A DNA stretch of 64,000 bases, taken from Bacillota bacterium (GTDB lineage Bacteria; Bacillota; Sulfobacillia; Sulfobacillales; JAIMBI01). Each line of letters opens with the position of its first letter. The stretch's first letter is position 1. Location: positions 39,301 through 103,300 of the forward strand of contig JAKADP010000002.1 in assembly GCA_021820465.1 (NCBI GenBank), given 5' to 3'. The notes below the pieces were generated by a model, which saw only the letters and a list, made by a program, of their open reading frames with translations, had not been told where the DNA came from and did no database searches. Of the stretch, positions 36,148 through 46,905 are shown one piece after another. Position numbers and translations under genes: made by a program.

Positions 36148-36404
36148 AGGTCACACTCCCTCCGCGCCGCTTGCGCGGTCGCTTGTCCATTATAAGGATC
36201 GCGGTCGGCCTTGGGCACCCCATGCCAATCGCGCATGTGCGGGGACGAGCGGCTGGAGGCCGCGGCCGCCTGCCGAGCCCACGGTGCCTCGCCTAGAAAT
36301 AATGTGGGCCCAGACAGGAATTGGGCCCTGGGCTGGAGAACTCTTGCGGCCGAATAGCGGGCCACCGCGTGGGGCGTGGTGCGCCGAGCAAGGGGGCGAG
36401 ATCG

Positions 36405-38090
36405 GTGGCCGTTTCCGACGCGGGTGCTGTGCGCGAGGATGAATTTCCCGGTCTCATGATGGACGACCTTCCGCTCACCACCACCTGGATTCTTCGCCGC
36501 GCCGCGACGGTGTTTGCCGACCGGCCGGTGGTGACGCGCACCCCCGGTGGCGGGCGGCACCGCTATACCTACCGCGCCATGGCGGGGCGAGCACGCCGGC
36601 TGGGCGTGGGGCTGGCCAGCCTGGGCATCGGTCCGGGGGACCGCGTGGCGACGCTGGCGATGAACCACTATCAGCACCTCGAAGCGTACTTTGGCGTTCC
36701 GGCTCTAGGCGCGGTCCTGCATACGGTCAACCCACGGCTTCACCCCCAGGACCTGGCTCACATCGTCACCCAGGCCGCCGACCGAGTCATGATCGTGGAT
36801 CAGGCGCTGTGGCCCGTCTGGTCGGCCATTGTCGGCCAGGTGCCGGTGGCGCACACGGTCGTGGTCGCGGATGGCACCGGACCCCTGCCCCCTGGGACGC
36901 TGGCGTACGAAGACCTGGTGGTGGAGGGGCCGGACCAGGTGCCGGACGATGCGGTGGCGAACGACCGCCAAGCCGCGATGATGTGCTACACGTCGGGCAC
37001 CACGGGCCGGCCCAAGGGCGTGGTGTATTCCCACCGGAGCTTGGTGCTCCACGCCTTGGCCACGGGTGGTGTGGACTCCGTCGGGCTCTCCGCGCGGGAC
37101 ATGGTGCTGCCGGTGGTGCCCATGTTCCACGTCAACGCCTGGGGGCTTCCGTACGGCGCGGCGCTGCATGGCAGTGGGCTGGTGCTGCCTGGGCATGATC
37201 TGTCGCCGGAGGGCCTTCTCACGCTGCTGGATGAGACCGGCGCCACCGTGACGGCGGGCGTGCCCACTATCTGGATGGCGATTTTGGCTGCGCTGGATGC
37301 GCACCCGAGTCGGTGGAACCTGTCGCAGCTCCGCACGATGCTGGTGGGCGGCGCCGCGGTGCCGGCCGCCGTCCTGCAAGGGTTTCGCGACCGCCATGGC
37401 CTCGGGGTGCTGCACGCGTGGGGCATGACGGAGACTACCCCGCTGGGCTCGGTGGCTCACGTGCCGGCTGGGGTGGACGAGGGGCCTGGGCCAGCCGGAG
37501 ACCACTATCGACTGTCCCAGGGCCGCCCGGCCGCCCTGGTTGAGGTGCGAGCGCGCGGAGAGGCCGGCCTAGTGCCCTGGGATGGGAAGACCCCGGGGGA
37601 GCTGGAAGTGCGGGGCCCCTGGGTGGCCAGGCACTACTATGGCGGTGACGACGACGGCAAGTTTACCCCCGATGGATGGTTCAAGACCGGGGATGTGGTG
37701 ACCATTGACCCCCAGGGGTATCTGGTCATCACCGACCGCACGAAGGATTTGGTCAAGTCCGGCGGGGAGTGGATCAGCTCCGTCGCGCTGGAGAACGCGC
37801 TGATGAGTCATCCGGGCGTGGCGGAGGCCGCGGTCATCGCGGTGCCTCACCCCCGCTGGCAGGAGCGGCCAGTGGCGGTGCTGGTGGCCCGGGGGGCCGA
37901 GCGCCCGTCGGATCAGGAACTGGCGGCTTTTCTCGCCCCCCAGTTTGCGGATTGGTGGCTGCCGGACGCGTACCGCTGGGTGGAAGCCATCCCGCGGACC
38001 GCCACCGGAAAATTTCTCAAGGCGGCTCTTCGGGAGCAGTTTCGCGATGCGCTGGGGGGCGGGGCCCAGAGAACGAGGGAGGTGCCGTAG
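36405..38090 (+). CDS. medium/long-chain acyl-CoA ligase (AlkK/DmdB-like)
   Basis: [35 protein letters not shown]; start uncertain. Confidence 0.9.
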
Positions 38091-38893
38091 TGGCAGAGGG
38101 GTTGGCCCCAGAACCGTTGGACGGGCTCCCGTGGGCCGACGCGGCGGTGATGGTGTTTGGGGGCGGGTCCGGGCTGGGAGAGGCCAGCGTGGCGCGGCTG
38201 GCGCGCCTAGGCGCGCGTGTGGCGGTCGTCGATGTCAATGCGGCGGCTGCCGAGCGGGTGGCCGCGCCGCTTGGGGCACGCGGCCTGGCGCTGGTGGCGG
38301 ATGTGGCGGCGGCCGAGCCTGTCGAGGCGGCGGTGGCCGCCGTGGTGGACCGCTGGGGAGCGGTCCGGGGCGTGGTGCACACCGCCGGCATTGCGATTGC
38401 CGAGCGCATTCTGGGCCGAGGCGGCCCGCACGACCTGGAGCGGTTTGCCCGTGTCGTGTCCGTGAACCTGGTCGGCACGTTCAACGTGCTGCGGCTGACC
38501 GCCCGCGCCATGGCGGCCAATCCGCCGGATGGCGAGGGCCAGCGTGGGGTCGTGGTCGTCACGGCTTCGGTGGCCGCGTTCGAGGGACAGGTGGGGCAGG
38601 CGGCCTACGCGGCGTCCAAGGGCGGCGTGGCGGCCTTGGTGCTCCCGGCGGCGCGCGAGCTGGCTCGCGACGGCATTCGGGTGGTGGGCATTGCGCCGGG
38701 AATTTTCGAGACCCCGATGATGGCGGGGCTGCCCGAGGCGGCGCGCCAGTCCCTGGGTCAGCAGGTGCCGTTCCCGCCCCGGCTGGGCCGGCCGGCCGAG
38801 TACGCCGACTTGGTGAGTCACATCTTCTTGAACCCGATGCTGAACGGCACGGTGATCCGCTTGGATGGCGCTATCCGCATGGCCCCTCGGTAG
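38090..38893 (+). CDS. SDR, 3-hydroxyacyl-CoA dehydrogenase type II (HSD10-like)
   Basis: [37 protein letters not shown]. Confidence 0.9.
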
Positions 38894-38916
38894 CGCGGAC
38901 AGGAGGGAGATGCGCG

Positions 38917-39963
38917 ATGGCCAACGCCGAGGCGGTCCTGCGGGTATTCCTGACCAGCTATCGGGACATTGTGGAGGCGGACCCGCTGGAGAAGAAGCTC
39001 GCGGCCATTGCCGCGGTCCTGGTGCGAGCGGGCCTGTTCCAGCGCGCGGCCGTGCAGGTGTATGCGTCGCTCTACGGCGAGAAGCTGTTTGGCCTGGCGG
39101 GACTGACGCCGCAAGAAGAGGAGTGGATTCGCACCCACGACATCCTGCCGGAGGAGGAGTATGCCCGGGTGCAGCAGCATGGGGTGCGCATCGAAGAGGT
39201 GTACTTTGTGCCGCACGAGCACCTGCGATCGGTGCTGCCCAACGTGGACGACGTGCTCCTCATGGATGCCTCGCGTGACCCGGACGACTGGCAGGAGGGG
39301 CAGTGGCACCCCGACGATATGCTGTACATGCCGCTGCTGGCGTCCAACGGACTGGCGCTGGGCAATATCACGGCTGACGCCCCCTTCGACAACCGCGTGC
39401 CTGACGAGGAGACCGCCGCCCTGCTGGCTCCGTTCGTGGCCATGGCCGCGTGCACCATCGAGCAGGAACTCAACCGGCGGCGCGACTACCTGACCCAGTG
39501 CTTCAATGGACAGTTTTTTCGCGATGAGGTGAGCCGCCGCCTCAGCATGCGGGGCCGGCCGCTGGGACTGGCTTTTGTGGACATGAACGGGTTGAAGGCC
39601 GTCAACGATGACCTAGGGCATGAGGCGGGCGACCGCGCCATCCAAGCCACGGCTGACGCCCTGCGTGCGCTGGGGGCGAAGCTGGCCGGCCACCTGTTCT
39701 ACGATCCCGTGGTATGCCGGCTTTACGGCGACGAATTTGGCCTGCTGTTCCGCCCGGACGCGGCCGTGGCCCCCGATGAGGTGGCCGCCGCCATGCTGGC
39801 CCACTGGCCCGAAGACGTCCCCCCGGCCGCGGTTGGCGTGGCGGGGGCTGAGCCCGAGGACGACCCGCGCACGCTCGTGCGGCGCGCCGAGGAGCGCATG
39901 TACGCGGCCAAGCGGGCCATGCGCCCACCCGGCGCCGGCCGGGAGCGTCGCGCCTCGGAGTAG
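38917..39963 (+). CDS. GAF-like sensor + GGDEF domain protein (YGDEF variant)
   Basis: FVDMNGLKAVND..GH.AGD, RLYGDEF, AEERMYAAK; N-terminal WHPDDMLYMPL region. Confidence 0.85.
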   Translation: MANAEAVLRVFLTSYRDIVEADPLEKKLAAIAAVLVRAGLFQRAAVQVYASLYGEKLFGLAGLTPQEEEWIRTHDILPEEEYARVQQHGVRIEEVYFVPHEHLRSVLPNVDDVLLMDASRDPDDWQEGQWHPDDMLYMPLLASNGLALGNITADAPFDNRVPDEETAALLAPFVAMAACTIEQELNRRRDYLTQCFNGQFFRDEVSRRLSMRGRPLGLAFVDMNGLKAVNDDLGHEAGDRAIQATADALRALGAKLAGHLFYDPVVCRLYGDEFGLLFRPDAAVAPDEVAAAMLAHWPEDVPPAAVGVAGAEPEDDPRTLVRRAEERMYAAKRAMRPPGAGRERRASE

Positions 39964-40049
39964 GGGAACCGCACGTTTTGTCGTATCCTCAGCATGCGGG
40001 GATGGCGGGGGCGCGCGGAAGACGGCTCCGAAGGCGAGGCGGGTTCCTG

Positions 40050-40973
40050 ATGTCTTTGTTCAGCGGCGGGGTGTCGAACGGCAGCAACTTTGTCGGAGGC
40101 CCGCTCGAAATTTACCTAGAGGACGTCACGGTGCAGGTGGGCGGCTTGGGGCGGCCTGCCCTGGATCGGGTGTCACTGCGGCAGGGCGCGGGGTGCCTGA
40201 CGGTGCTGGGGCCGCGGGGGTGTGGCAAGTCCACCTTGCTGAGCGTGGTGGCGTCCCGTCTGGCTCCATCCACAGGGACAGCGCGCGTCGGTCGGGCGGA
40301 CGTGGCCCAAGATCCGCTGGCGGTGCGCCGGCTCGTGGGGTACGTGCCCGAGGCGGTGACGGTGCCGGAGGATCTCACGCTGTCGGAGTATTTGCTGGAG
40401 CTGGCACGGCTGGACGGGCTCGGCCGAGAATCCCGCGATCGGGTCGAGGCGGCGCTGGCCGCTGTGCACCTGGCGGCGTCCGCCCACCGCCGCTTGAAGG
40501 CGTTTTCCGGCGGCATGAAGCGGCGCGCACTGGTGGCTCAGGCCCTCATGAAGGATCCGGCTTGTCTGGTGGTGGAGACACCGACCGCCGGGCTTGATCC
40601 CTATGAGCAGCTTATGACGCTGGAACTGCTGCGCTCGCTGGGCGAGGATCGGCCGGTGCTGCTGTCCACCACGGTGGTGGACGACGTTCAGGACTTGGGC
40701 GGGCATGTGGCGGTGCTGGACCGTGGCCGGCTCATCCGGCGCCTGCCGGCGCGGGAGTTGGCGCTGATGGCGCGGGGACTGGTGTGGGAGCTGCCGTGGA
40801 GCTTCCGCGCTCGCGTGCATGAGGGTCTGGTGTTTCCCGGGCCCCGGCCCGACACGGTGGCGGTGCTGGCGCAGAGCTCCCCCCACCAAGTGGCCCGCCC
40901 CGTGGACCCCACACCCGAATATGGCTATCTGGTGCTGCTGTGGAACAGCCGACGGGAGTCTCAGAGCGCGTGA
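40050..40973 (+). CDS. ABC ATP-binding protein 1 (degenerate Walker B and H-loop)
   Basis: GPRGCGKST, FSGGMKRR, LVVETPTAGLDP, LLSTT. Confidence 0.88.
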   Translation: MSLFSGGVSNGSNFVGGPLEIYLEDVTVQVGGLGRPALDRVSLRQGAGCLTVLGPRGCGKSTLLSVVASRLAPSTGTARVGRADVAQDPLAVRRLVGYVPEAVTVPEDLTLSEYLLELARLDGLGRESRDRVEAALAAVHLAASAHRRLKAFSGGMKRRALVAQALMKDPACLVVETPTAGLDPYEQLMTLELLRSLGEDRPVLLSTTVVDDVQDLGGHVAVLDRGRLIRRLPARELALMARGLVWELPWSFRARVHEGLVFPGPRPDTVAVLAQSSPHQVARPVDPTPEYGYLVLLWNSRRESQSA

Positions 40974-41890
40974 GTGACGTGGCAATGAAAGTGCGCGGCT
41001 TGGTGCAGTACGGCCACGGGGTGGAAGCCCCAGAGATTTTGCACGAGGTCACCCTCGATCTGCGCACCGGGCTCACGGCGCTGGTGGGCCCGAACGGCGC
41101 TGGCAAGACGACGCTGCTCCGGTCGTTGGCCGGGATCGTCCCTTTGGAAGAAGGCCATATCGAGGTGGGCGACGTGGCGATGCAGGACCGCCCCGCCGCC
41201 GTGCGTCGCCGCGTGGGCTACCTGCCCCAGTTTCCCGGAGTCTACCGCCGGCTCACCGTCTGGGAGCATGTTTGGCGGCAGCAGGCCTGGATGCTGGGCC
41301 ATCCGCCGGAGGAGGAGGACGTGCGGACCGCACTCCGGCACTTTGGCCTCCTGCACCGCGCCGACGGCAGTGCGGCGAGGCTGTCGGCGTCGGAGCGCCG
41401 CTGGCTGGCCTTGGCCATGCTGTGGGCCCGCCGCGTGCAGGTCATGCTGCTGGATGAACCCACCGCCGGGCTGGACCTAGAGGAGCGCCTCGCGCTGTGG
41501 GACGTGCTGGCGGCCCTGCTGCACGAGCCGGATGGCCCCCGCGCCATCTTGGTCACCACGCATCTGCTGGACGAGGTGGCCCGATTTTGCAGCGATGCGA
41601 TGATGCTGGTGCAGGGCCGGATGGTGTATCAGGGCGCTGTGGCCGGCCTGGCCGGGCGCGCTCAGGGCCGCACCTGGTATGTACCGCGGGGCGTGCCGGT
41701 CCCGGACGCGGTGGAGGTGGGCGTCGACCTGGCGCAAGACCGGCGGCTGGTCGTGTCGGTGGGCGAGAGGGCCGAAGGGCCGCCGGGGTTCACGCCCCGC
41801 CCGCCCCGCCTGCTGGATGGGTATTTGGTGGTGGAGCGCCAGTGGCTGGAAGGGAGGTGGGCCGATGGCCGGCGGGCTCCCCGCCGCTAG
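40970..41890 (+). CDS. ABC ATP-binding protein 2 (degenerate signature)
   Basis: GPNGAGKTT, GYLPQ, LSASERR, LLDEPTAGLD, VTTH. Confidence 0.9.
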   Translation: MSDVAMKVRGLVQYGHGVEAPEILHEVTLDLRTGLTALVGPNGAGKTTLLRSLAGIVPLEEGHIEVGDVAMQDRPAAVRRRVGYLPQFPGVYRRLTVWEHVWRQQAWMLGHPPEEEDVRTALRHFGLLHRADGSAARLSASERRWLALAMLWARRVQVMLLDEPTAGLDLEERLALWDVLAALLHEPDGPRAILVTTHLLDEVARFCSDAMMLVQGRMVYQGAVAGLAGRAQGRTWYVPRGVPVPDAVEVGVDLAQDRRLVVSVGERAEGPPGFTPRPPRLLDGYLVVERQWLEGRWADGRRAPRR

Positions 41891-44027
41891 GGCGCCTGCC
41901 GCGGGCCCCTCGCGGGCCACGGCGATCTGGGTGCTGGCGGGCGACACGTGGCGCCAGAGCTGGCGGGAAGTGGTGGTGCGCACCGAACTGGTGGCCCTGT
42001 TGCTCCTGTCCCTGATTGCCGGCGTGGCGGCGGTGGGGTCCCCGACTGCGGGGGCCGGTGCCATCCAGATGCTGGCGCTGTGCCTCATGCTGGTGCCGTT
42101 TGCGGTGGTGTTGGCGGCGGGCCAGGTGTGGCGCAGTCCGGCTGCCGAAGTGGCGGTGTTCGCCCGACCCGTCACGGCCGCGGGCTATGTGCTGGGCCGA
42201 GCCCTCGGGCTGGTGGCGGTGGGGGCGGCCATGCTGGCGGCGGTTGACGCGCTGGGCACGCTGGCCCTGTTTGGCATTGCCCGGCTGCCGCTGGTGTCGT
42301 CGCTCGCGTGGAACACCGCTTGGTGCCTCCTCGCGGTGGCCCCGAGCCTGGTGCTGACGGCTGCCGCGGCCGTGTGGCTGGTCGGGCGGACCGGGGGTGG
42401 GGCGCGCTACTTCACGCTGGGCATCCTGGGGAGCCTCGTCGTGGCGTTTGTCGAGTACAAGTGGACGGCGTTGGCGGCGGCGCTGGACCCGCACCTCGTG
42501 CTGTGGAGCCCATTTCCGGGGATGCTGACGCTGGGGCTTGCGCTGCCCCCCGAGCTGTTGGGCCCGACGCCCGGCTGGCTGTGGGCCAACCGCGCCGTCT
42601 GGCTGGTGGTGGCCGCGGTCCTGCTGTTGGCGGCGGTGCGGGAGCGAGACCGGGGCCGCACCACGCCGTCGGCGAGCCCCGCGCGCGACCAAGCGCTGAT
42701 CCGCGGCGCCGTGGGGGCGCTGGTGGTGGCGATGGTGTGGCTGGAGTCCGCGGCGCTGTCGCTGTCGCCGGGGGTGCTGCCGGCCGCAGCGGCGGCGGGC
42801 AGCCTGGGCGTGGCGGCGGCGGGGCCCTTGGCCCTGTCGCTGGCAGTCAATCCGGCCAGTGGAGTGGTGGCCGGGCGGGCCAGCGTGCACGTGGTGACAG
42901 GGCACGCCTCCTCACAGCCGCTCGGGTTTTGGCTGAATCGGGGCCTCGGAGTCCAGCAGGCCACGTGGAACGGCCAGCCCGTGCCCATCATCCATGCGGG
43001 CGGACGGGTGCTGGCGGGCAGTGCTGCCCGACTGGTGGCGGTCCGTGTGCCCGGAGGATCCGGGACGCTGGTGGTGACCTACGGCGGCCGGCTGCTGCCG
43101 CTGGCCACGTGGTTGCCGACGCCGCCGTTTGCCCCGGGCAGCGGGGCCGGTGCGGCGTACGCGGGCGGCGGGCGGGTGTACTGGTCCGGGGCCGGAGCCT
43201 GGTACCCGCGACTGCTCGCGGCCAGCGGGGCGGGCAGGCCGATCTTCGTGCCCACGTCGCTGTCTTGGCACTTCACAGGACCCCGTTCCGCCTTCCCGGC
43301 CTGGAGCGGCCTGCCCGGCCCAGGCGCCACCGGGGTGCTGCCGTCCGTCCTATGGCTTCAAGGCCCATATCGCGCGACGGAAGTGGACGGCGTGAGCGTA
43401 TACACGCGCCGTGCGGTGGGCGCGGTGCAGCAGGCGTCGCTCTCGGCGTATGCGGCGGCCTTAAAGGTGCTGAGCCCCTGGCTGCCGGGGGCCGCCGCCC
43501 GCGTGCCGGTGATGGTCGTGGACCCCTTGCTCACGCACGCCGCCATGACGCCGGCGTTTGTGGCGCTGCCGGGCAACCAGCCGTACTGCGTCCCCGCCGA
43601 CCCCGTGGTGGGGACGTGCACGGCGCCGGAGCCGACGGGGGCCGCACCGTGGCTGCGCCTGGCGGCGTTGGGGTGGGAAAACGCGCTGGGCATTGTGCCC
43701 GGGGGAACGCGCGCCACGACGCCGGAATGGCCCGCCGGCGACCAGCGCCAGCAGCTGCTGGGGGTGCTGGCCGCCGCTACCGTGATTCGGGCCGATGCCG
43801 GCGGCCCCGTGGCCCGGGCCGTTGCGCTGGCCGGGTATCAGCGGCGGGGTCGGCTCCCCATCGTGGGGCGCCTGTCGGCCGTGCGGGCCGGTGAGTTGAA
43901 GCAGCTGGCCGCTTGGGCGGCTACGGCGAGTGCGAGCCAGTGGGAGGGCATGGTGGCCCACGTGGCCGGTGCGGCGGCTCGTGGGCCCGTGACCTGGGCC
44001 GATGTCTTGGCCGGTGAGTCGTTCTAA
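41865..44027 (+). CDS. ABC-2-type permease fused to a large extracellular M1-aminopeptidase-like domain
   Basis: Multi-TM N-terminal part (FARPV...YVLGR), then beta-rich LALSLAVNP...FWLNRGLGV...LVVTYGG...AWYP region; GGAGG RBS. Confidence 0.65.
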   Translation: MAGGLPAARAPAAGPSRATAIWVLAGDTWRQSWREVVVRTELVALLLLSLIAGVAAVGSPTAGAGAIQMLALCLMLVPFAVVLAAGQVWRSPAAEVAVFARPVTAAGYVLGRALGLVAVGAAMLAAVDALGTLALFGIARLPLVSSLAWNTAWCLLAVAPSLVLTAAAAVWLVGRTGGGARYFTLGILGSLVVAFVEYKWTALAAALDPHLVLWSPFPGMLTLGLALPPELLGPTPGWLWANRAVWLVVAAVLLLAAVRERDRGRTTPSASPARDQALIRGAVGALVVAMVWLESAALSLSPGVLPAAAAAGSLGVAAAGPLALSLAVNPASGVVAGRASVHVVTGHASSQPLGFWLNRGLGVQQATWNGQPVPIIHAGGRVLAGSAARLVAVRVPGGSGTLVVTYGGRLLPLATWLPTPPFAPGSGAGAAYAGGGRVYWSGAGAWYPRLLAASGAGRPIFVPTSLSWHFTGPRSAFPAWSGLPGPGATGVLPSVLWLQGPYRATEVDGVSVYTRRAVGAVQQASLSAYAAALKVLSPWLPGAAARVPVMVVDPLLTHAAMTPAFVALPGNQPYCVPADPVVGTCTAPEPTGAAPWLRLAALGWENALGIVPGGTRATTPEWPAGDQRQQLLGVLAAATVIRADAGGPVARAVALAGYQRRGRLPIVGRLSAVRAGELKQLAAWAATASASQWEGMVAHVAGAAARGPVTWADVLAGESF

Positions 44028-44042
44028 TCGCGAGGGGGGGCA

Positions 44043-44762
44043 ATGATGGCACAGAGCGGCGGCCGGCGGCTCGGCGTCGGGTGGCCGCGGGCTGTGAGGG
44101 TCCAGCGCCTAGTGCTGGAGCTCAAGCTCGCGGGGGGCGCTCCCTGGATTTTGGTGCCGCTGGGCCTGTTGGTGCTGACACTTATGCACACCGGCCTCGG
44201 GGGCGGCGCGGCCGAGTGGGCGCCTCACTGGGCCGAAAACTGTGAGGCGTTCCTCCCGCTCGGCTTTGGCATTGGCTCCGCCTCGCTGCTGCTGGTGGAG
44301 CACGATGAAGGCATGCTGGAGATGGCGTCGGCCCTGCCGCTGCCGAGGCTGGCGCGGACACGGACGCTGGCGCTTGTGGGAGGCGCCTGGCTCCTGGTGC
44401 TGGTATGGCTTGTCGGGCTGCGGGTCCTGTTTGGCCCGGTGCCGTTTTGGACCGGCGTGGGGGCGGCCCTGGGCCCTGGCCTGTTCCTTGGGGGGGGATC
44501 GGCGCTGGTGGCCAGCCGGTCTGGGCGCGTCGCGCTGGGCTACCTGGTGGCCATCGGCGTGCCGGTGATGGACTTGGTGCTGCAGCTGCTGGGGGTGTTT
44601 TACCGGCTTTGGCCGCTGCAGTTGGTGAACGTGTTTGCGTACCGGTGGGCCACGCCAGAGCCGGGGTGGGTGGTGGTCAAGGTGGTGATGGGCCTGGTGG
44701 GCTTGTGGCTGTATCGACGTGCCATCCGGGGATGGCGGGATGCGGGCGCGAACCTGCTGTAG
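44043..44762 (+). CDS. second ABC permease-like membrane protein
   Basis: About 6 hydrophobic segments, E..EGMLE motif typical of ABC-2 permeases; follows the ABC genes. Confidence 0.65.
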   Translation: MMAQSGGRRLGVGWPRAVRVQRLVLELKLAGGAPWILVPLGLLVLTLMHTGLGGGAAEWAPHWAENCEAFLPLGFGIGSASLLLVEHDEGMLEMASALPLPRLARTRTLALVGGAWLLVLVWLVGLRVLFGPVPFWTGVGAALGPGLFLGGGSALVASRSGRVALGYLVAIGVPVMDLVLQLLGVFYRLWPLQLVNVFAYRWATPEPGWVVVKVVMGLVGLWLYRRAIRGWRDAGANLL

Positions 44763-44803
44763 CGGGAGCCCGTGGCCAGAGGAAAGGAGGCGAGCTTACG
44801 AGC

Positions 44804-45949
44804 GTGCAGCGAGGGCCGTGGGGCGGATCCGAGGCCGAGGCAGCCGGCGGCCGCGATGTTGGCCGGCTGGACACGCCAGCGGTGGTGGTGGATCGCGGAA
44901 TCGCGGCGGCCAATCTCGAGCGCATGGCCGCCCGGGTCAGTGCGCGGCGCCAGGCGCTGTGGCCCCATGTCAAAACCCACAAGAGCCTAGCCTGGGCCCA
45001 GCGGCAGCTGGACTTGGGGGCCGGGGGTCTCATGGTGGCGAAGTTGGAGGAGGCGGTGCCGCTCGCCCGGCATGGGGTGCCTGCCGTGTATGTCGGCTAC
45101 CCACTGGTGGGCCCCGGACCGGCCCGTCGGCTCACCCAGCTGGTGGCCGCCGGCCTCCAGGTGCGCGTGGCCGTGGATTCGCTGGCGGGGGTAGCCTGCC
45201 TCGCGGACGTGGCGCGCGCTACCAGTGCTCCGCTGGCCGCGCTGGTGGAGGTGGACACCGGGTTTCAGCGGTGCGGCGTTGCGAGCGTCGACGACGCGGT
45301 CCAGCTTGCGGAGGCGCTCGCGGCCGCCGGGGTGCGGTACCAGGGGATCACCTGCTTTGGGGGGCACATTACTTGGCGCCTCTCCGACGACGAGCGGCGG
45401 GCGGCGGTGGTGGCGCAAAACCTGCTGCTGGCCCAGTGGTCCGAGGACCTCAGGGCGCGTGGGTGGGCCCCGGAGGTGGTGTCGGTGGGGGGGACCGTGC
45501 CGACCGGGCACCTGGATCTGCTGTCGTCCGCGACTGAGCTTCGGCCTGGGACCTATATCTACAACGACGTGGCCACCGTCTTGGCCGGCGCCGCCCAGTG
45601 GGCCGACTGTGCCGCGTGGGTGTGGACCACGGTGGTCAGCACCCCGACCGCTGACCGGGCCGTGGTGGACGCCGGCAGCAAGACCCTCTCGAGCGATGGC
45701 CCTGTGGCGGGCTCGTTTGGGCACGTGCGCGAACGGCCAGATGTGTTTGTCTCGTCGCTCTCAGAGGAGCACGGGGTGATTCGGGCGCGGGACGGCGGGG
45801 CCACGGGCCTCGAGGTGGGCGACCGCCTCTCCATCGTGCCCAATCACGTGTGCACGATGATTAACCTGCACGACAACGTGCACTTGGTGGAGGGGCGGCG
45901 GGTCGTAGGGTCGCTCGCGGTCGACCTGCGGGGCATGATTCACTCATGA
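44804..45949 (+). CDS. fold-type III PLP enzyme, D-threonine aldolase/D-serine dehydratase (DSD1) family
   Basis: PHVKTHK, ELRPGTYIYND, DAGSKTLS, SEEHG, PNHVC; start uncertain. Confidence 0.88.
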   Translation: MQRGPWGGSEAEAAGGRDVGRLDTPAVVVDRGIAAANLERMAARVSARRQALWPHVKTHKSLAWAQRQLDLGAGGLMVAKLEEAVPLARHGVPAVYVGYPLVGPGPARRLTQLVAAGLQVRVAVDSLAGVACLADVARATSAPLAALVEVDTGFQRCGVASVDDAVQLAEALAAAGVRYQGITCFGGHITWRLSDDERRAAVVAQNLLLAQWSEDLRARGWAPEVVSVGGTVPTGHLDLLSSATELRPGTYIYNDVATVLAGAAQWADCAAWVWTTVVSTPTADRAVVDAGSKTLSSDGPVAGSFGHVRERPDVFVSSLSEEHGVIRARDGGATGLEVGDRLSIVPNHVCTMINLHDNVHLVEGRRVVGSLAVDLRGMIHS

Positions 45950-45988: not shown

Positions 45989-46630
45989 CTACAGGGTGAG
46001 ATGCTCGAAGGCGGTGCGGAGCTGCTCGTTTAACACGCGGATGTGGGTGCCCTTCATGCCAAGCGATCGCGTCTGGATGACCCCCGCGCTCTCCAGCTTG
46101 CGGAGCGCGTTGACGATGACCGACCGGGTAATGCCCATCTCATCCGCCACGTGAGACGTCACGACCAACCCTTGATTGTCGTCGATTTCGGAAAACAGCC
46201 GCTGTGCGGCCATCAGCTCCGAGTAGGATAGAGCCTCGATCGCCGCCGATACCTGGGTCCGCTCGCGATCGCGGTTGGCGGAGCGCACCTCCCGCGCCCG
46301 GCCCATCACCAGGGCGATGATGGTGGAGCCGTATTCCGCCAGCAGCCAATCGTCGGGGGTGAGGCCCGACTCGGGCCGATGCAGGGTCAGGATGCCGGCG
46401 GGGCCGGATGGCCCCTGCAGGACCATCTTGGTGTTGGGCGTCGCGGTGCGTCCGGCGGCCGTTCCCGAGCCCCCGGCGCTGAGGGGCGTTTCGCCCAGCG
46501 GGGCCGTCACCTCCACGGCGCACCCCAGCGCTCGAGCCAACTCCTCCATGAAGGGCCGCAGGTCGTAGCTGTCGGGCACCCCGCGCCACAGTGCATCGGT
46601 CAGTTGCCGGAAGTCATCAAGCACAGCCAT
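45989..46630 (-). CDS. codY: CodY-family regulator with shortened GAF domain (213 aa)
   Basis: LSYSEL, GITRSVIVNALRKLESAGVI..RSLGMKGT, DD.LLAEYG.T; GGAGGAGG RBS before ATG at 46630. Confidence 0.88.
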   Translation of the reverse strand: MAVLDDFRQLTDALWRGVPDSYDLRPFMEELARALGCAVEVTAPLGETPLSAGGSGTAAGRTATPNTKMVLQGPSGPAGILTLHRPESGLTPDDWLLAEYGSTIIALVMGRAREVRSANRDRERTQVSAAIEALSYSELMAAQRLFSEIDDNQGLVVTSHVADEMGITRSVIVNALRKLESAGVIQTRSLGMKGTHIRVLNEQLRTAFEHLTL

Positions 46631-46905
46631 CTGTCGTCCTCCTCCAATTTGTCGCGGCGCGCTCGGGTCTGCTGCCGCCCGATGCCCGCTTGCCAGGGCT
46701 CGCCGACGGGATGCCACGGCGGCCACCGGCTCACTTCGGGCTTGCCTCCACACTGATTCGCAATATCACGGCATTTTGAGGTATTGCTCCCGATCCACTG
46801 TGCCTGAGCACTTACCGGTCGTAGTCACGGCACGTGGTCCTACCAGATCACATGTTACCATGAAGTAGTGGACCGGCAAGCCGCCGGCGGGAAATTGGCG
46901 AGTAT

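Follow-up and report, generated by a model that had tools for sequence, protein, structure and literature searches.

Here we report that two adjacent, separately encoded ATP-binding cassette (ABC) ATPases of a Bacillota bacterium (Sulfobacillales; JAIMBI01), termed A1 and A2, carry complementary losses of conserved motifs, and that these losses are concentrated in one and the same composite ATP site in the operons compared. The genes lie in a stretch of 64,000 nucleotides, hereafter the window, of contig JAKADP010000002.1 (assembly GCA_021820465.1, positions 39,301 to 103,300 of the forward strand) and are followed by the genes of two membrane proteins, M1 and M2. We observed the altered motifs, their conservation among related operons, a fixed gene order, and purifying selection on the four genes. 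The reading that we favor, at a probability of roughly three in four, is that A1 and A2 form an obligate heterodimer with one active site.

Results

Complementary motif changes in A1 and A2

A1 is encoded on the plus strand at positions 40050-40973 (ATG at 40050; 307 amino acids) and matched PF00005 with 69.7 bits (gathering cut-off 25; E = 4.9e-19); as in A2, its Walker A, signature, and Walker B motifs follow one another in the expected order. A database protein of 307 amino acids, P0001, was identical to it. A2 is encoded on the same strand at 40970..41890 and matched PF00005 with 92.7 bits (cut-off 25; E = 4e-26). It starts either at GTG 40970 (306 amino acids), which overlaps the stop codon of A1 as GTGA, or at ATG 40985 (301 amino acids); the database gene calls for A2 are 301 amino acids long and hence fit the latter. 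The open frame itself extends back to 40940. The two ATPases shared about 30% identity.

In A1, the Walker A motif GPRGCGKST (40209-40235) and the signature FSGGM (40503-40517) are intact, the latter being normal in this branch, in which canonical relatives read LSGGM or FSGGM. The Walker B motif reads CLVVET, where GAG ACA (40575-40580) encodes Glu176-Thr177, that is, Glu for Asp and Thr for the catalytic Glu. The H-loop reads LLSTT, with Thr208 (40671-40673) at the position of His, and the Gln of the Q-loop is replaced by Glu101 (40350-40352). The strand before Walker A holds a Val where orthologues have an aromatic residue (F, W, H, or Y); we take this position to be the A-loop. A2 has the Walker A motif GPNGAGKTT (41087-41113), the Q-loop Gln87 (41228-41230), the Walker B pair Asp162-Glu163 (41453-41458), and the H-loop His198 (41561-41563), together with a degenerate signature, LSASE (41381-41395), in which Ser is kept and both Gly are lost. 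A preliminary description of the same DNA had reported the intact signature and the Walker B and H-loop changes of A1, and the intact Walker A, Walker B, and His of A2 with its degenerate signature; each was located in the sequence and translation as claimed, and the Q-loop and presumed A-loop changes are additions to it.

Both proteins scored far below the equivalog cut-offs of NCBIfam: the best matches of A1 were GldA (138.3 against 402.6) and drrA (135.1 against 312.45), and A2 reached 120.2 against 312.45 for drrA. In a profile search, the closest solved relatives of A1 and A2 were the ATPase domains of ABCA4, ABCA7, ABCA3, and ABCA1 (E = 8e-82 and 9e-70). By sequence, A1 and A2 thus appear related to the DrrA/GldA/NodI branch but outside those named NCBIfam families. 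The earlier label of an ABC-2-type system agreed with these nearest relatives and with the membrane domain of M1, which models as type V (see below).

Deviations are concentrated in one composite site

M1 was used as the marker of the system since it is free of the paralogue problem. We fetched 22 loci, of which 19 held both ATPases and, together with the window, gave 20 operons. In L032 the contig ends inside A1, so that A2 was counted without its partner (n = 21 for A2), and the upstream part is missing from L041 and L042. To obtain motif columns, we used alignments anchored on the window proteins; eight key positions were scored per site: the Walker A Lys, Gln, Asp, Glu, and His of one ATPase, and the signature Ser, Gly, and Gly of the other.

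The site composed of the Walker A, Q-loop, Walker B, and His of A1 and the signature of A2 showed 87 deviations among 160 key residues, with at least two in every operon. The reciprocal site, composed of the catalytic side of A2 and the signature of A1, showed 5 of 160, and none in 17 of the 20 operons. The genomes compared are kin, so these tallies describe a conserved state, not independent events. Judged from the sequences, the confinement of the deviations to one composite site exceeds what chance would be expected to give. The co-conservation of both degeneracies in homologous operons, which had been proposed as a check, was thereby borne out.

On the A2 side of the intact site, Asp-Glu and His were kept in all 21 loci, a canonical Walker A in 20 (the exception being GPSAAGKTT in L030), and the Q-loop Gln in 19. 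No A2 signature among the 21 loci had both the Ser at its second and the Gly at its fourth position (Ser2 and Gly4); the variants included LSASE, LSPAR, LDGGQ, LHPSE, LNDTE, LDAAQ, LGQTE, and LGAAE. A1 kept the Walker A Lys and the D-loop GLDP in 20/20 operons and an SGG signature in 17/20 (the exceptions were L030, SFG; L034, SEG; and L037, SCA). The H-loop His of A1 stood at the aligned position in a single operon (L039), and in L030 a His sits one residue further on. Of the A1 proteins in the 20 operons, 11 had the catalytic Glu, 13 the Q-loop Gln, and 16 the Walker B Asp.

Database orthologues gave a similar picture. In 15 orthologues of A1 (46-100% identity), the catalytic Glu was absent from all and the His from 14; both residues are present in four canonical outgroup ABC-2 ATPases. 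For A2, the best 120 matches were taken, the 85 shorter than 360 amino acids were examined, and 37 of these were orthologues sharing the QFP Q-loop of A2. Among these best 120 matches, the SGG core was found in 0/37 orthologues, and Asp-Glu and His in 37/37. The other 48 of the 85 proteins had SGG in 42 cases and Ser2 with Gly4 in 47.

Purifying selection and a graded series of site loss

The ratio of nonsynonymous to synonymous substitution rates (dN/dS) was determined for eight close pairs of loci and ranged over 0.09-0.20 for A1, 0.04-0.18 for A2, and 0.13-0.25 for M1; that of M2 was 0.09-0.18 (7 pairs). Reading frames were intact in all loci. Hence A1 is under purifying selection, much like A2, and is not decaying. 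The preliminary description had named canonical motifs in orthologues, a sign of random decay, as what would speak against it; no reversion to canonical motifs was seen in the orthologues.

The degenerate site showed from 2 to 6 deviations across the operons. L026 and L027 have two (A1 His to Ser, A2 Ser to Asp). Three were counted in L040 and in L039 (G142:C272:8800-14700), which belongs to another family of the class; in L039 all three lie in the A2 signature (LGAAE), and A1 is fully canonical with a normal signature. Many loci of the neighboring family have four deviations (His to Gln plus signature changes), the sister genus and one species of the window's genus have four to five, and the window and its two closest relatives have six of eight. 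As a separate observation, the M1 match in the genome of L039 was reported with one in-frame TGA. L039 may represent an early stage of site loss, and the series suggests that the A2 signature was lost first and the catalytic residues of A1 afterwards. We offer this order as a hypothesis, since L039 stands on a basal fork that the quick tree did not settle.

The quick tree was built with 32 outgroup proteins, hand-picked from those available. In it, A1 formed one clade (support 85) and A2 another (support 99), with similar inner branching. The two were not sisters, and each grouped with a different set of canonical ABC-2 ATPases; as the support for this was weak (84), the tree neither demonstrates nor dismisses a recent tandem duplication.

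Predicted A1-A2 dimer

A complex of A1, A2, two ATP, and two Mg was modeled, with each chain entered as an alignment, along with three controls. The A1-A2 model scored 0.85, and the best control 0.01. Of 157 solved complexes, 116 attained this score mark, as did 2 of 215 mismatched pairs. Runs agreed in at least 96% of the contacts, and the predicted local distance difference test (pLDDT) of the partners was at least 84.

In the model, the A1 signature (residues 153 and 155-156) lies opposite the A2 Walker A (39-44), and the A2 signature (141) opposite the A1 Walker A (54-56). The D-loop of A1 (181-188) contacts the Walker A (39-44) and the H-loop (198-201) of A2, and the C-terminal domains touch across the dimer (A1 290-297 with A2 282-289). 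The predicted contacts are those of a canonical head-to-tail ABC dimer. Because ABC dimers have been solved abundantly, passing the score mark indicates likeness to them, not binding of A1 to A2. The multimer prediction that had been suggested as a check therefore agreed in one part, in that each signature faced the Walker A of the other chain, but did not separate the heterodimer from the homodimers.

Membrane subunits M1 and M2

M1 (41865-44027, plus strand; ATG at 41865; 720 amino acids) was assigned as a membrane subunit from its predicted model. Neither M1 nor M2 matched any Pfam or NCBIfam family (Pfam threshold, E = 0.01). When 31 relatives of M1 were compared with Pfam ABC2_membrane, the matches were few and all below threshold (E = 0.1-0.66), and relatives of M2 gave no match to this family. 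Folding M1 as a single sequence gave an unusable model (mean pLDDT 41.4). The model used here was built from a 31-row alignment, with pLDDT 86.4 and a predicted template modeling score (pTM) of 0.83.

Residues about 19-264 of M1 (41919-42656) model as a type V (ABC-2 fold) transmembrane domain. The best structural match was NosY (7o0y_D; Z = 19.4, root-mean-square deviation (rmsd) 3.4, 238 of 267 aligned), followed by PmtD (6xjh_A; Z = 14.6) and by ABCG2 and a mycobacterial pump (Z = 14.2); further matches were ABCA4, CcmB, Wzm, and KpsM. An extra helix was predicted at residues 272-300, giving M1 about seven helices in all, that is, one membrane half and one extra helix. Type V domains end in the cytoplasm, so with the extra helix the remainder of M1 should lie outside the cell.

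This remainder, residues about 310-720 (42792-44024), forms the C-terminal two thirds of the protein and models as a fold like that of aminopeptidases of peptidase family M1. It matched a two-domain peptidase of this family from Deinococcus (6a8z; Foldseek E = 1.1e-9, template modeling (TM) score by target 0.46), tricorn factor F3 (1z1w_A; Z = 17.1, 336 aligned, rmsd 6.8), and ERAP1 (Z = 16.2). The motifs of this family are HExxH, which binds zinc, and GxMEN, the exopeptidase motif. Both were absent from 31/31 members of the M1 subunit family, and PF01433 (Peptidase_M1) matched neither M1 nor its 31 relatives. Hence, as far as the model indicates, the C-terminal domain would be a pseudo-peptidase, peptidase-like in fold but not in motifs, and probably displayed outside the cell.

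The family of M1 is small, clade-restricted, and unannotated. Of 41 related genomes, 20 had M1, as did 25 of 210 genomes of the class; among 401 genomes drawn evenly from the phylum, its profile at E = 1e-10 or better found one, the window's own. Against 1.84 billion representative proteins, the profile gave 161 matches at E = 0.001 or better, 26 of them at 1e-30 or better. A homologue with 82% identity is recorded as 'hypothetical protein [Thermaerobacter sp.]'. Separately, four distant relatives (P0283, P0288, P0292, and P0298) of about 1100 amino acids end in a Golvesin_C domain, and a Pfam search of these four found no peptidase domain; they carry a different ectodomain on a related membrane core.

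M2 (44043-44762, plus strand; 239 amino acids) is a polytopic membrane protein and the presumed second transmembrane subunit, on account of about six hydrophobic segments in its hydropathy profile and its conserved position 3' of M1. It was present there in 20 of the 22 fetched loci, and the two exceptions, L025 and L041, end at a contig edge. Its structural neighbors in the Atlas were ABC-2 permease clusters (TM score 0.56-0.67), which we treat as a lead, not a test.

Gene layout and surroundings

Each of the 19 fetched loci with both ATPases showed the order A1-A2-M1-M2, and all four genes occurred together in every complete locus. A1 and A2 overlapped in 18 of 20 operons, and by exactly 4 nt in 11 of the 20, with gene starts set by a script rule, so that individual values may be off. 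Such overlap fits coupled, equimolar synthesis. In the window, the start of M1 overlaps the end of A2 by 26 nt, and its ATG is preceded by GGGAGGTG, which resembles a ribosome-binding site.

A scan of 39400-45200 found no promoter-like sites. It returned three terminator-like sites, all at 44131-44146 inside M2; shuffled sequences gave a mean of 1.8, and we took these sites as chance. The G+C content of the window is about 70%, which produces long spurious open reading frames (ORFs) on both strands.

Upstream of A1, on the plus strand, lie an acyl-CoA-synthetase-like gene (36321-38090), a short-chain dehydrogenase gene (about 38144-38893), and the gene of a protein with a GGDEF diguanylate-cyclase domain (frame 37945-39963, real start probably near 38980), which ends 86 nt before A1; the N-terminal part of the GGDEF protein had no Pfam match. 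Directly 3' of the transporter operon, on the same strand, lies a D-serine-dehydratase-like gene (about 44846-45949; Ala_racemase_N and D-ser_dehydrat), followed on the minus strand by a CodY-like regulator gene (45989-46753) with a good match to HTH_CodY and a weak one to the CodY GAF domain.

Other ABC pairs in the genome

When every ORF in the window's genome was scanned by profile, an ABC ATPase domain turned up in 43, among which were seven adjacent same-strand pairs. Four of the pairs, all outside the window, consist of long ORFs: C57:3043-6689, C92:22876-26435, C106:26957-30737, and C122:1-3380. Their ORF length suggests fused half-transporters. The catalytic Glu is replaced by Asp or Ser in one partner of each pair; the signature of the other is changed in three pairs (ISAGQ once, LSLGQ twice), and in C92 it reads LSGGE. 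The pair on C85 consists of short ORFs, Opp/Dpp-like by their motifs, and is canonical in both partners. The pair at C3:8223-9703 consists of overlapping ORFs, each with fragments of the ABC ATPase domain; their signatures read LSPGE and LSTGE, and the pair may represent a frameshifted or tandem-domain gene. A1-A2 is the seventh pair. By these motifs, the organism appears to use the same asymmetric design in its fused exporters, and among the readable free-standing pairs (C85 and A1-A2) the design is found in A1-A2 alone.

In this genome, the signature of single ABC-2-type ATPases is often S-x-G-M (YSLGM, FSKGM, and YSRGM), so that a change of the first Gly alone is tolerated. The trait that distinguishes A2 is, by sequence, the loss of Ser or of the second Gly.

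Discussion

The machine that we propose is as follows. The four co-directional, mostly overlapping genes would encode one type V (ABC-2 fold) machine, A1·A2·M1·M2, with a presumed stoichiometry of 1:1:1:1. A1 and A2 would form a head-to-tail dimer with two composite ATP sites. The consensus site, composed of the Walker A, Gln, Asp-Glu, and His of A2 and the FSGGM of A1, would be complete and would be the sole site of hydrolysis. The degenerate site, composed of the Walker A and the altered Q-loop, Walker B, and H-loop of A1 and the LSASE of A2, would hydrolyze ATP slowly or not at all. It would probably still bind ATP, as the Walker A Lys was kept in every orthologue, and would serve as a hinge or enduring contact, like its counterpart in TM287/288, TAP, and ABCG5/G8. 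Each cycle would consume one ATP, and the movement would be passed to the unequal membrane pair M1/M2, in which M1 would bear an aminopeptidase-like domain that is catalytically dead and probably lies outside the cell. Either homodimer would be expected to be impaired. The geometry of the dimer and the folds of M1 are taken from predicted models.

Several points weigh against this proposal. The kinship of the compared genomes means that the counts overstate the independent support for it. A1 of L039 retains the complete set of K, Q, D, E, and H, and A1 of L026 and of L027 is short of His alone, so that the asymmetry could be weak in these three loci. The A2 signature of the window retains Ser, and its changes of Gly to Ala and Ser may leave some activity. 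Ser2 and Gly4 are retained together in 2 of the 37 database orthologues of A2 (LSPGR and LSMGE), as they are in single-gene ABC ATPases of the window's genome (YSLGM, FSKGM). The success of the A1-A2 model is expected for any ABC pair and does not distinguish the heterodimer from homodimers. As to the membrane pair, a profile comparison of M2 with M1 (hhalign) was collinear over the membrane domain but not significant (probability 1%, E = 0.047).

We weighed three other explanations against the heterodimer. A transporter powered by an A2 homodimer, with A1 as a non-catalytic, ATP-binding accessory or regulator outside the canonical dimer, would account for the retention of every catalytic residue in A2, and would draw on the Ser of the window signature and on the S-x-G variants of single-gene ABC ATPases in the same genome; A1, with Walker A kept in 20/20 operons and its catalytic residues lost, could then be a nucleotide sensor. 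We regard this as improbable, because the SGG signature (17/20) and the D-loop GLDP (20/20) are conserved in A1, and these matter solely if A1 completes the ATP site of a partner. Moreover, Ser2 and Gly4 occurred together in none of the 21 A2 loci, and the model sets the A1 signature on the A2 Walker A.

The four genes might instead encode two separate homodimeric transporters, an A1 dimer with one membrane protein and an A2 dimer with the other. This is how pmtABCD, with its two ATPases and two permeases, is described, namely as encoding the distinct transporters PmtAB and PmtCD (PMC9974410). The structural matches of the M1 membrane domain include PmtD, and M1 and M2 share no significant sequence similarity. 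Still, we consider this arrangement very improbable. An A1 homodimer would have both sites without the H-loop His in 19 of the 20 operons, and in the window's genus also without the catalytic Glu, which would leave it scarcely able to power anything; two degenerate signatures would be present in an A2 homodimer. The defects of A1 and A2 are complementary and conserved, the four genes co-occur in every complete locus, and the order is ATPase-ATPase-permease-permease with A1/A2 overlap in 18/20 operons, in contrast to the alternating order of pmtABCD. That the gene pair is redundant or dying, and its motifs decay at random, could be read from the fact that the changes in A1 are most numerous within the window's genus, where 6 of the 8 scored positions of the degenerate site deviate. 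This explanation is already contradicted and is hardly credible: frames are intact in all loci, A1 evolves with dN/dS of 0.09-0.20, and the same site is affected in 20/20 operons while the other stays intact and the Walker A and signature of A1 are conserved.

As a mechanism, the pairing of a catalytic with a non-catalytic ATP site in a heterodimer is well established, and the operon leaves it unchanged. ABC exporters whose ATPase domains are not identical frequently combine a consensus with a degenerate site (PMC3971661), and loss of the Walker B Glu is often accompanied by H-loop changes, ABCA members included (PMC7756269). As the preliminary description had stated, the asymmetric design is known from fused type IV exporters (PMC3971661, PMC7756269). 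In TM287/288, TmrAB, BmrCD, and TAP1/2, one domain lacks the catalytic Glu, often His too, and the other has a deviant signature, both changes falling in one composite site and leaving one consensus site, as in A1/A2 (PMC3971661, PMC7756269). In those exporters, however, every ATPase domain forms one polypeptide with a type IV membrane domain of its own, whereas A1 and A2 are free-standing, DrrA/ABCA-like, and accompanied by a type V membrane fold.

The eukaryotic ABCG5/G8 and ABCA proteins are closer in fold. They share with this system the type V fold and one degenerate plus one consensus site, and degenerate sites are known in fused eukaryotic type V forms, among them the heterodimer ABCG5/G8 (PMC7756269). 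The C-terminal ends of the ATPases touch in ABCG5/G8 (PMC7756269), as they do in the A1/A2 model, and ABCA domains are the best PDB sequence matches of A1 and A2. Unlike in these proteins, where the ATPase is fused to the membrane domain, A1 and A2 are separate; and ABCG5/G8 has signature changes with a Walker A Lys-to-Arg change (PMC7756269), whereas A1 keeps Lys and loses Glu, His, and Gln.

Among bacterial systems, RbsA and NupO of Bacillus subtilis also have one degenerate ATP site of two unlike ones, but they are importers with both ATPase domains in one polypeptide (PMC11466899), unlike the separate A1 and A2. In the available part of that survey of B. subtilis, degenerate sites are noted solely in these fused tandem ATPases, and the listed rows of the type V exporter table repeat the same ATPase twice, e.g., YtrB2CD (PMC11466899). 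The pmtABCD operon of Staphylococcus aureus is likewise a four-gene ABC-2 system with two free-standing ATPases and two permeases (PMC9974410), but it is described as two transporters with alternating ATPase and permease genes, and here one machine is proposed. M1 resembles TCDB 3.A.1.145 (Myxococcus xanthus Q1D520) in having an ABC-2 membrane domain followed by a C-terminal domain of the M1-peptidase type (PMC3924187). Q1D520, however, is one protein of 1200 amino acids with 13 predicted membrane segments and a zinc aminopeptidase domain (PMC3924187), whereas M1 has about seven helices, a separate M2, and no zinc motifs; it does not combine two ABC-2 membrane halves (13 segments) with an M1 peptidase in a single polypeptide, as 3.A.1.145 does. 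A literature search, incomplete in coverage and hence no proof of absence, turned up no report of paired free-standing ATPases with a degenerate site in ABC-2 or type V systems.

Three things are new here: a type V system with two free-standing ATPases of this kind, a membrane pair that is unannotated and bears a dead aminopeptidase-like ectodomain, and the natural intermediates. A broader reading, which we put forward tentatively and consider unlikely, would join these into a clade-restricted type V machine that combines free-standing live and dead ATPases, a surviving series of site loss, and an asymmetry of the motor matched to its unequal membrane pair. On this broader reading, the losses may have run from the partner signature through the H-loop His and the catalytic Glu and finally to the Q-loop Gln and Walker B Asp, as seen in the window's genus, and the machine may not be an ordinary exporter but a mechanotransducer that spends one ATP and grips or senses a ligand resembling a peptide.

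Degenerate ATP sites have been studied almost solely in fused exporters, in which the halves are inseparable. Separately encoded live and dead ATPases could each be purified, mixed, and mutated alone, and their homodimers compared directly with the heterodimer; the system would thus allow the contribution of a dead site to be tested in a type V transporter. Furthermore, the graded series, in which the number of deviant key residues in this one site ranges from 2 to 6, would provide natural intermediates for the evolution of degenerate sites.

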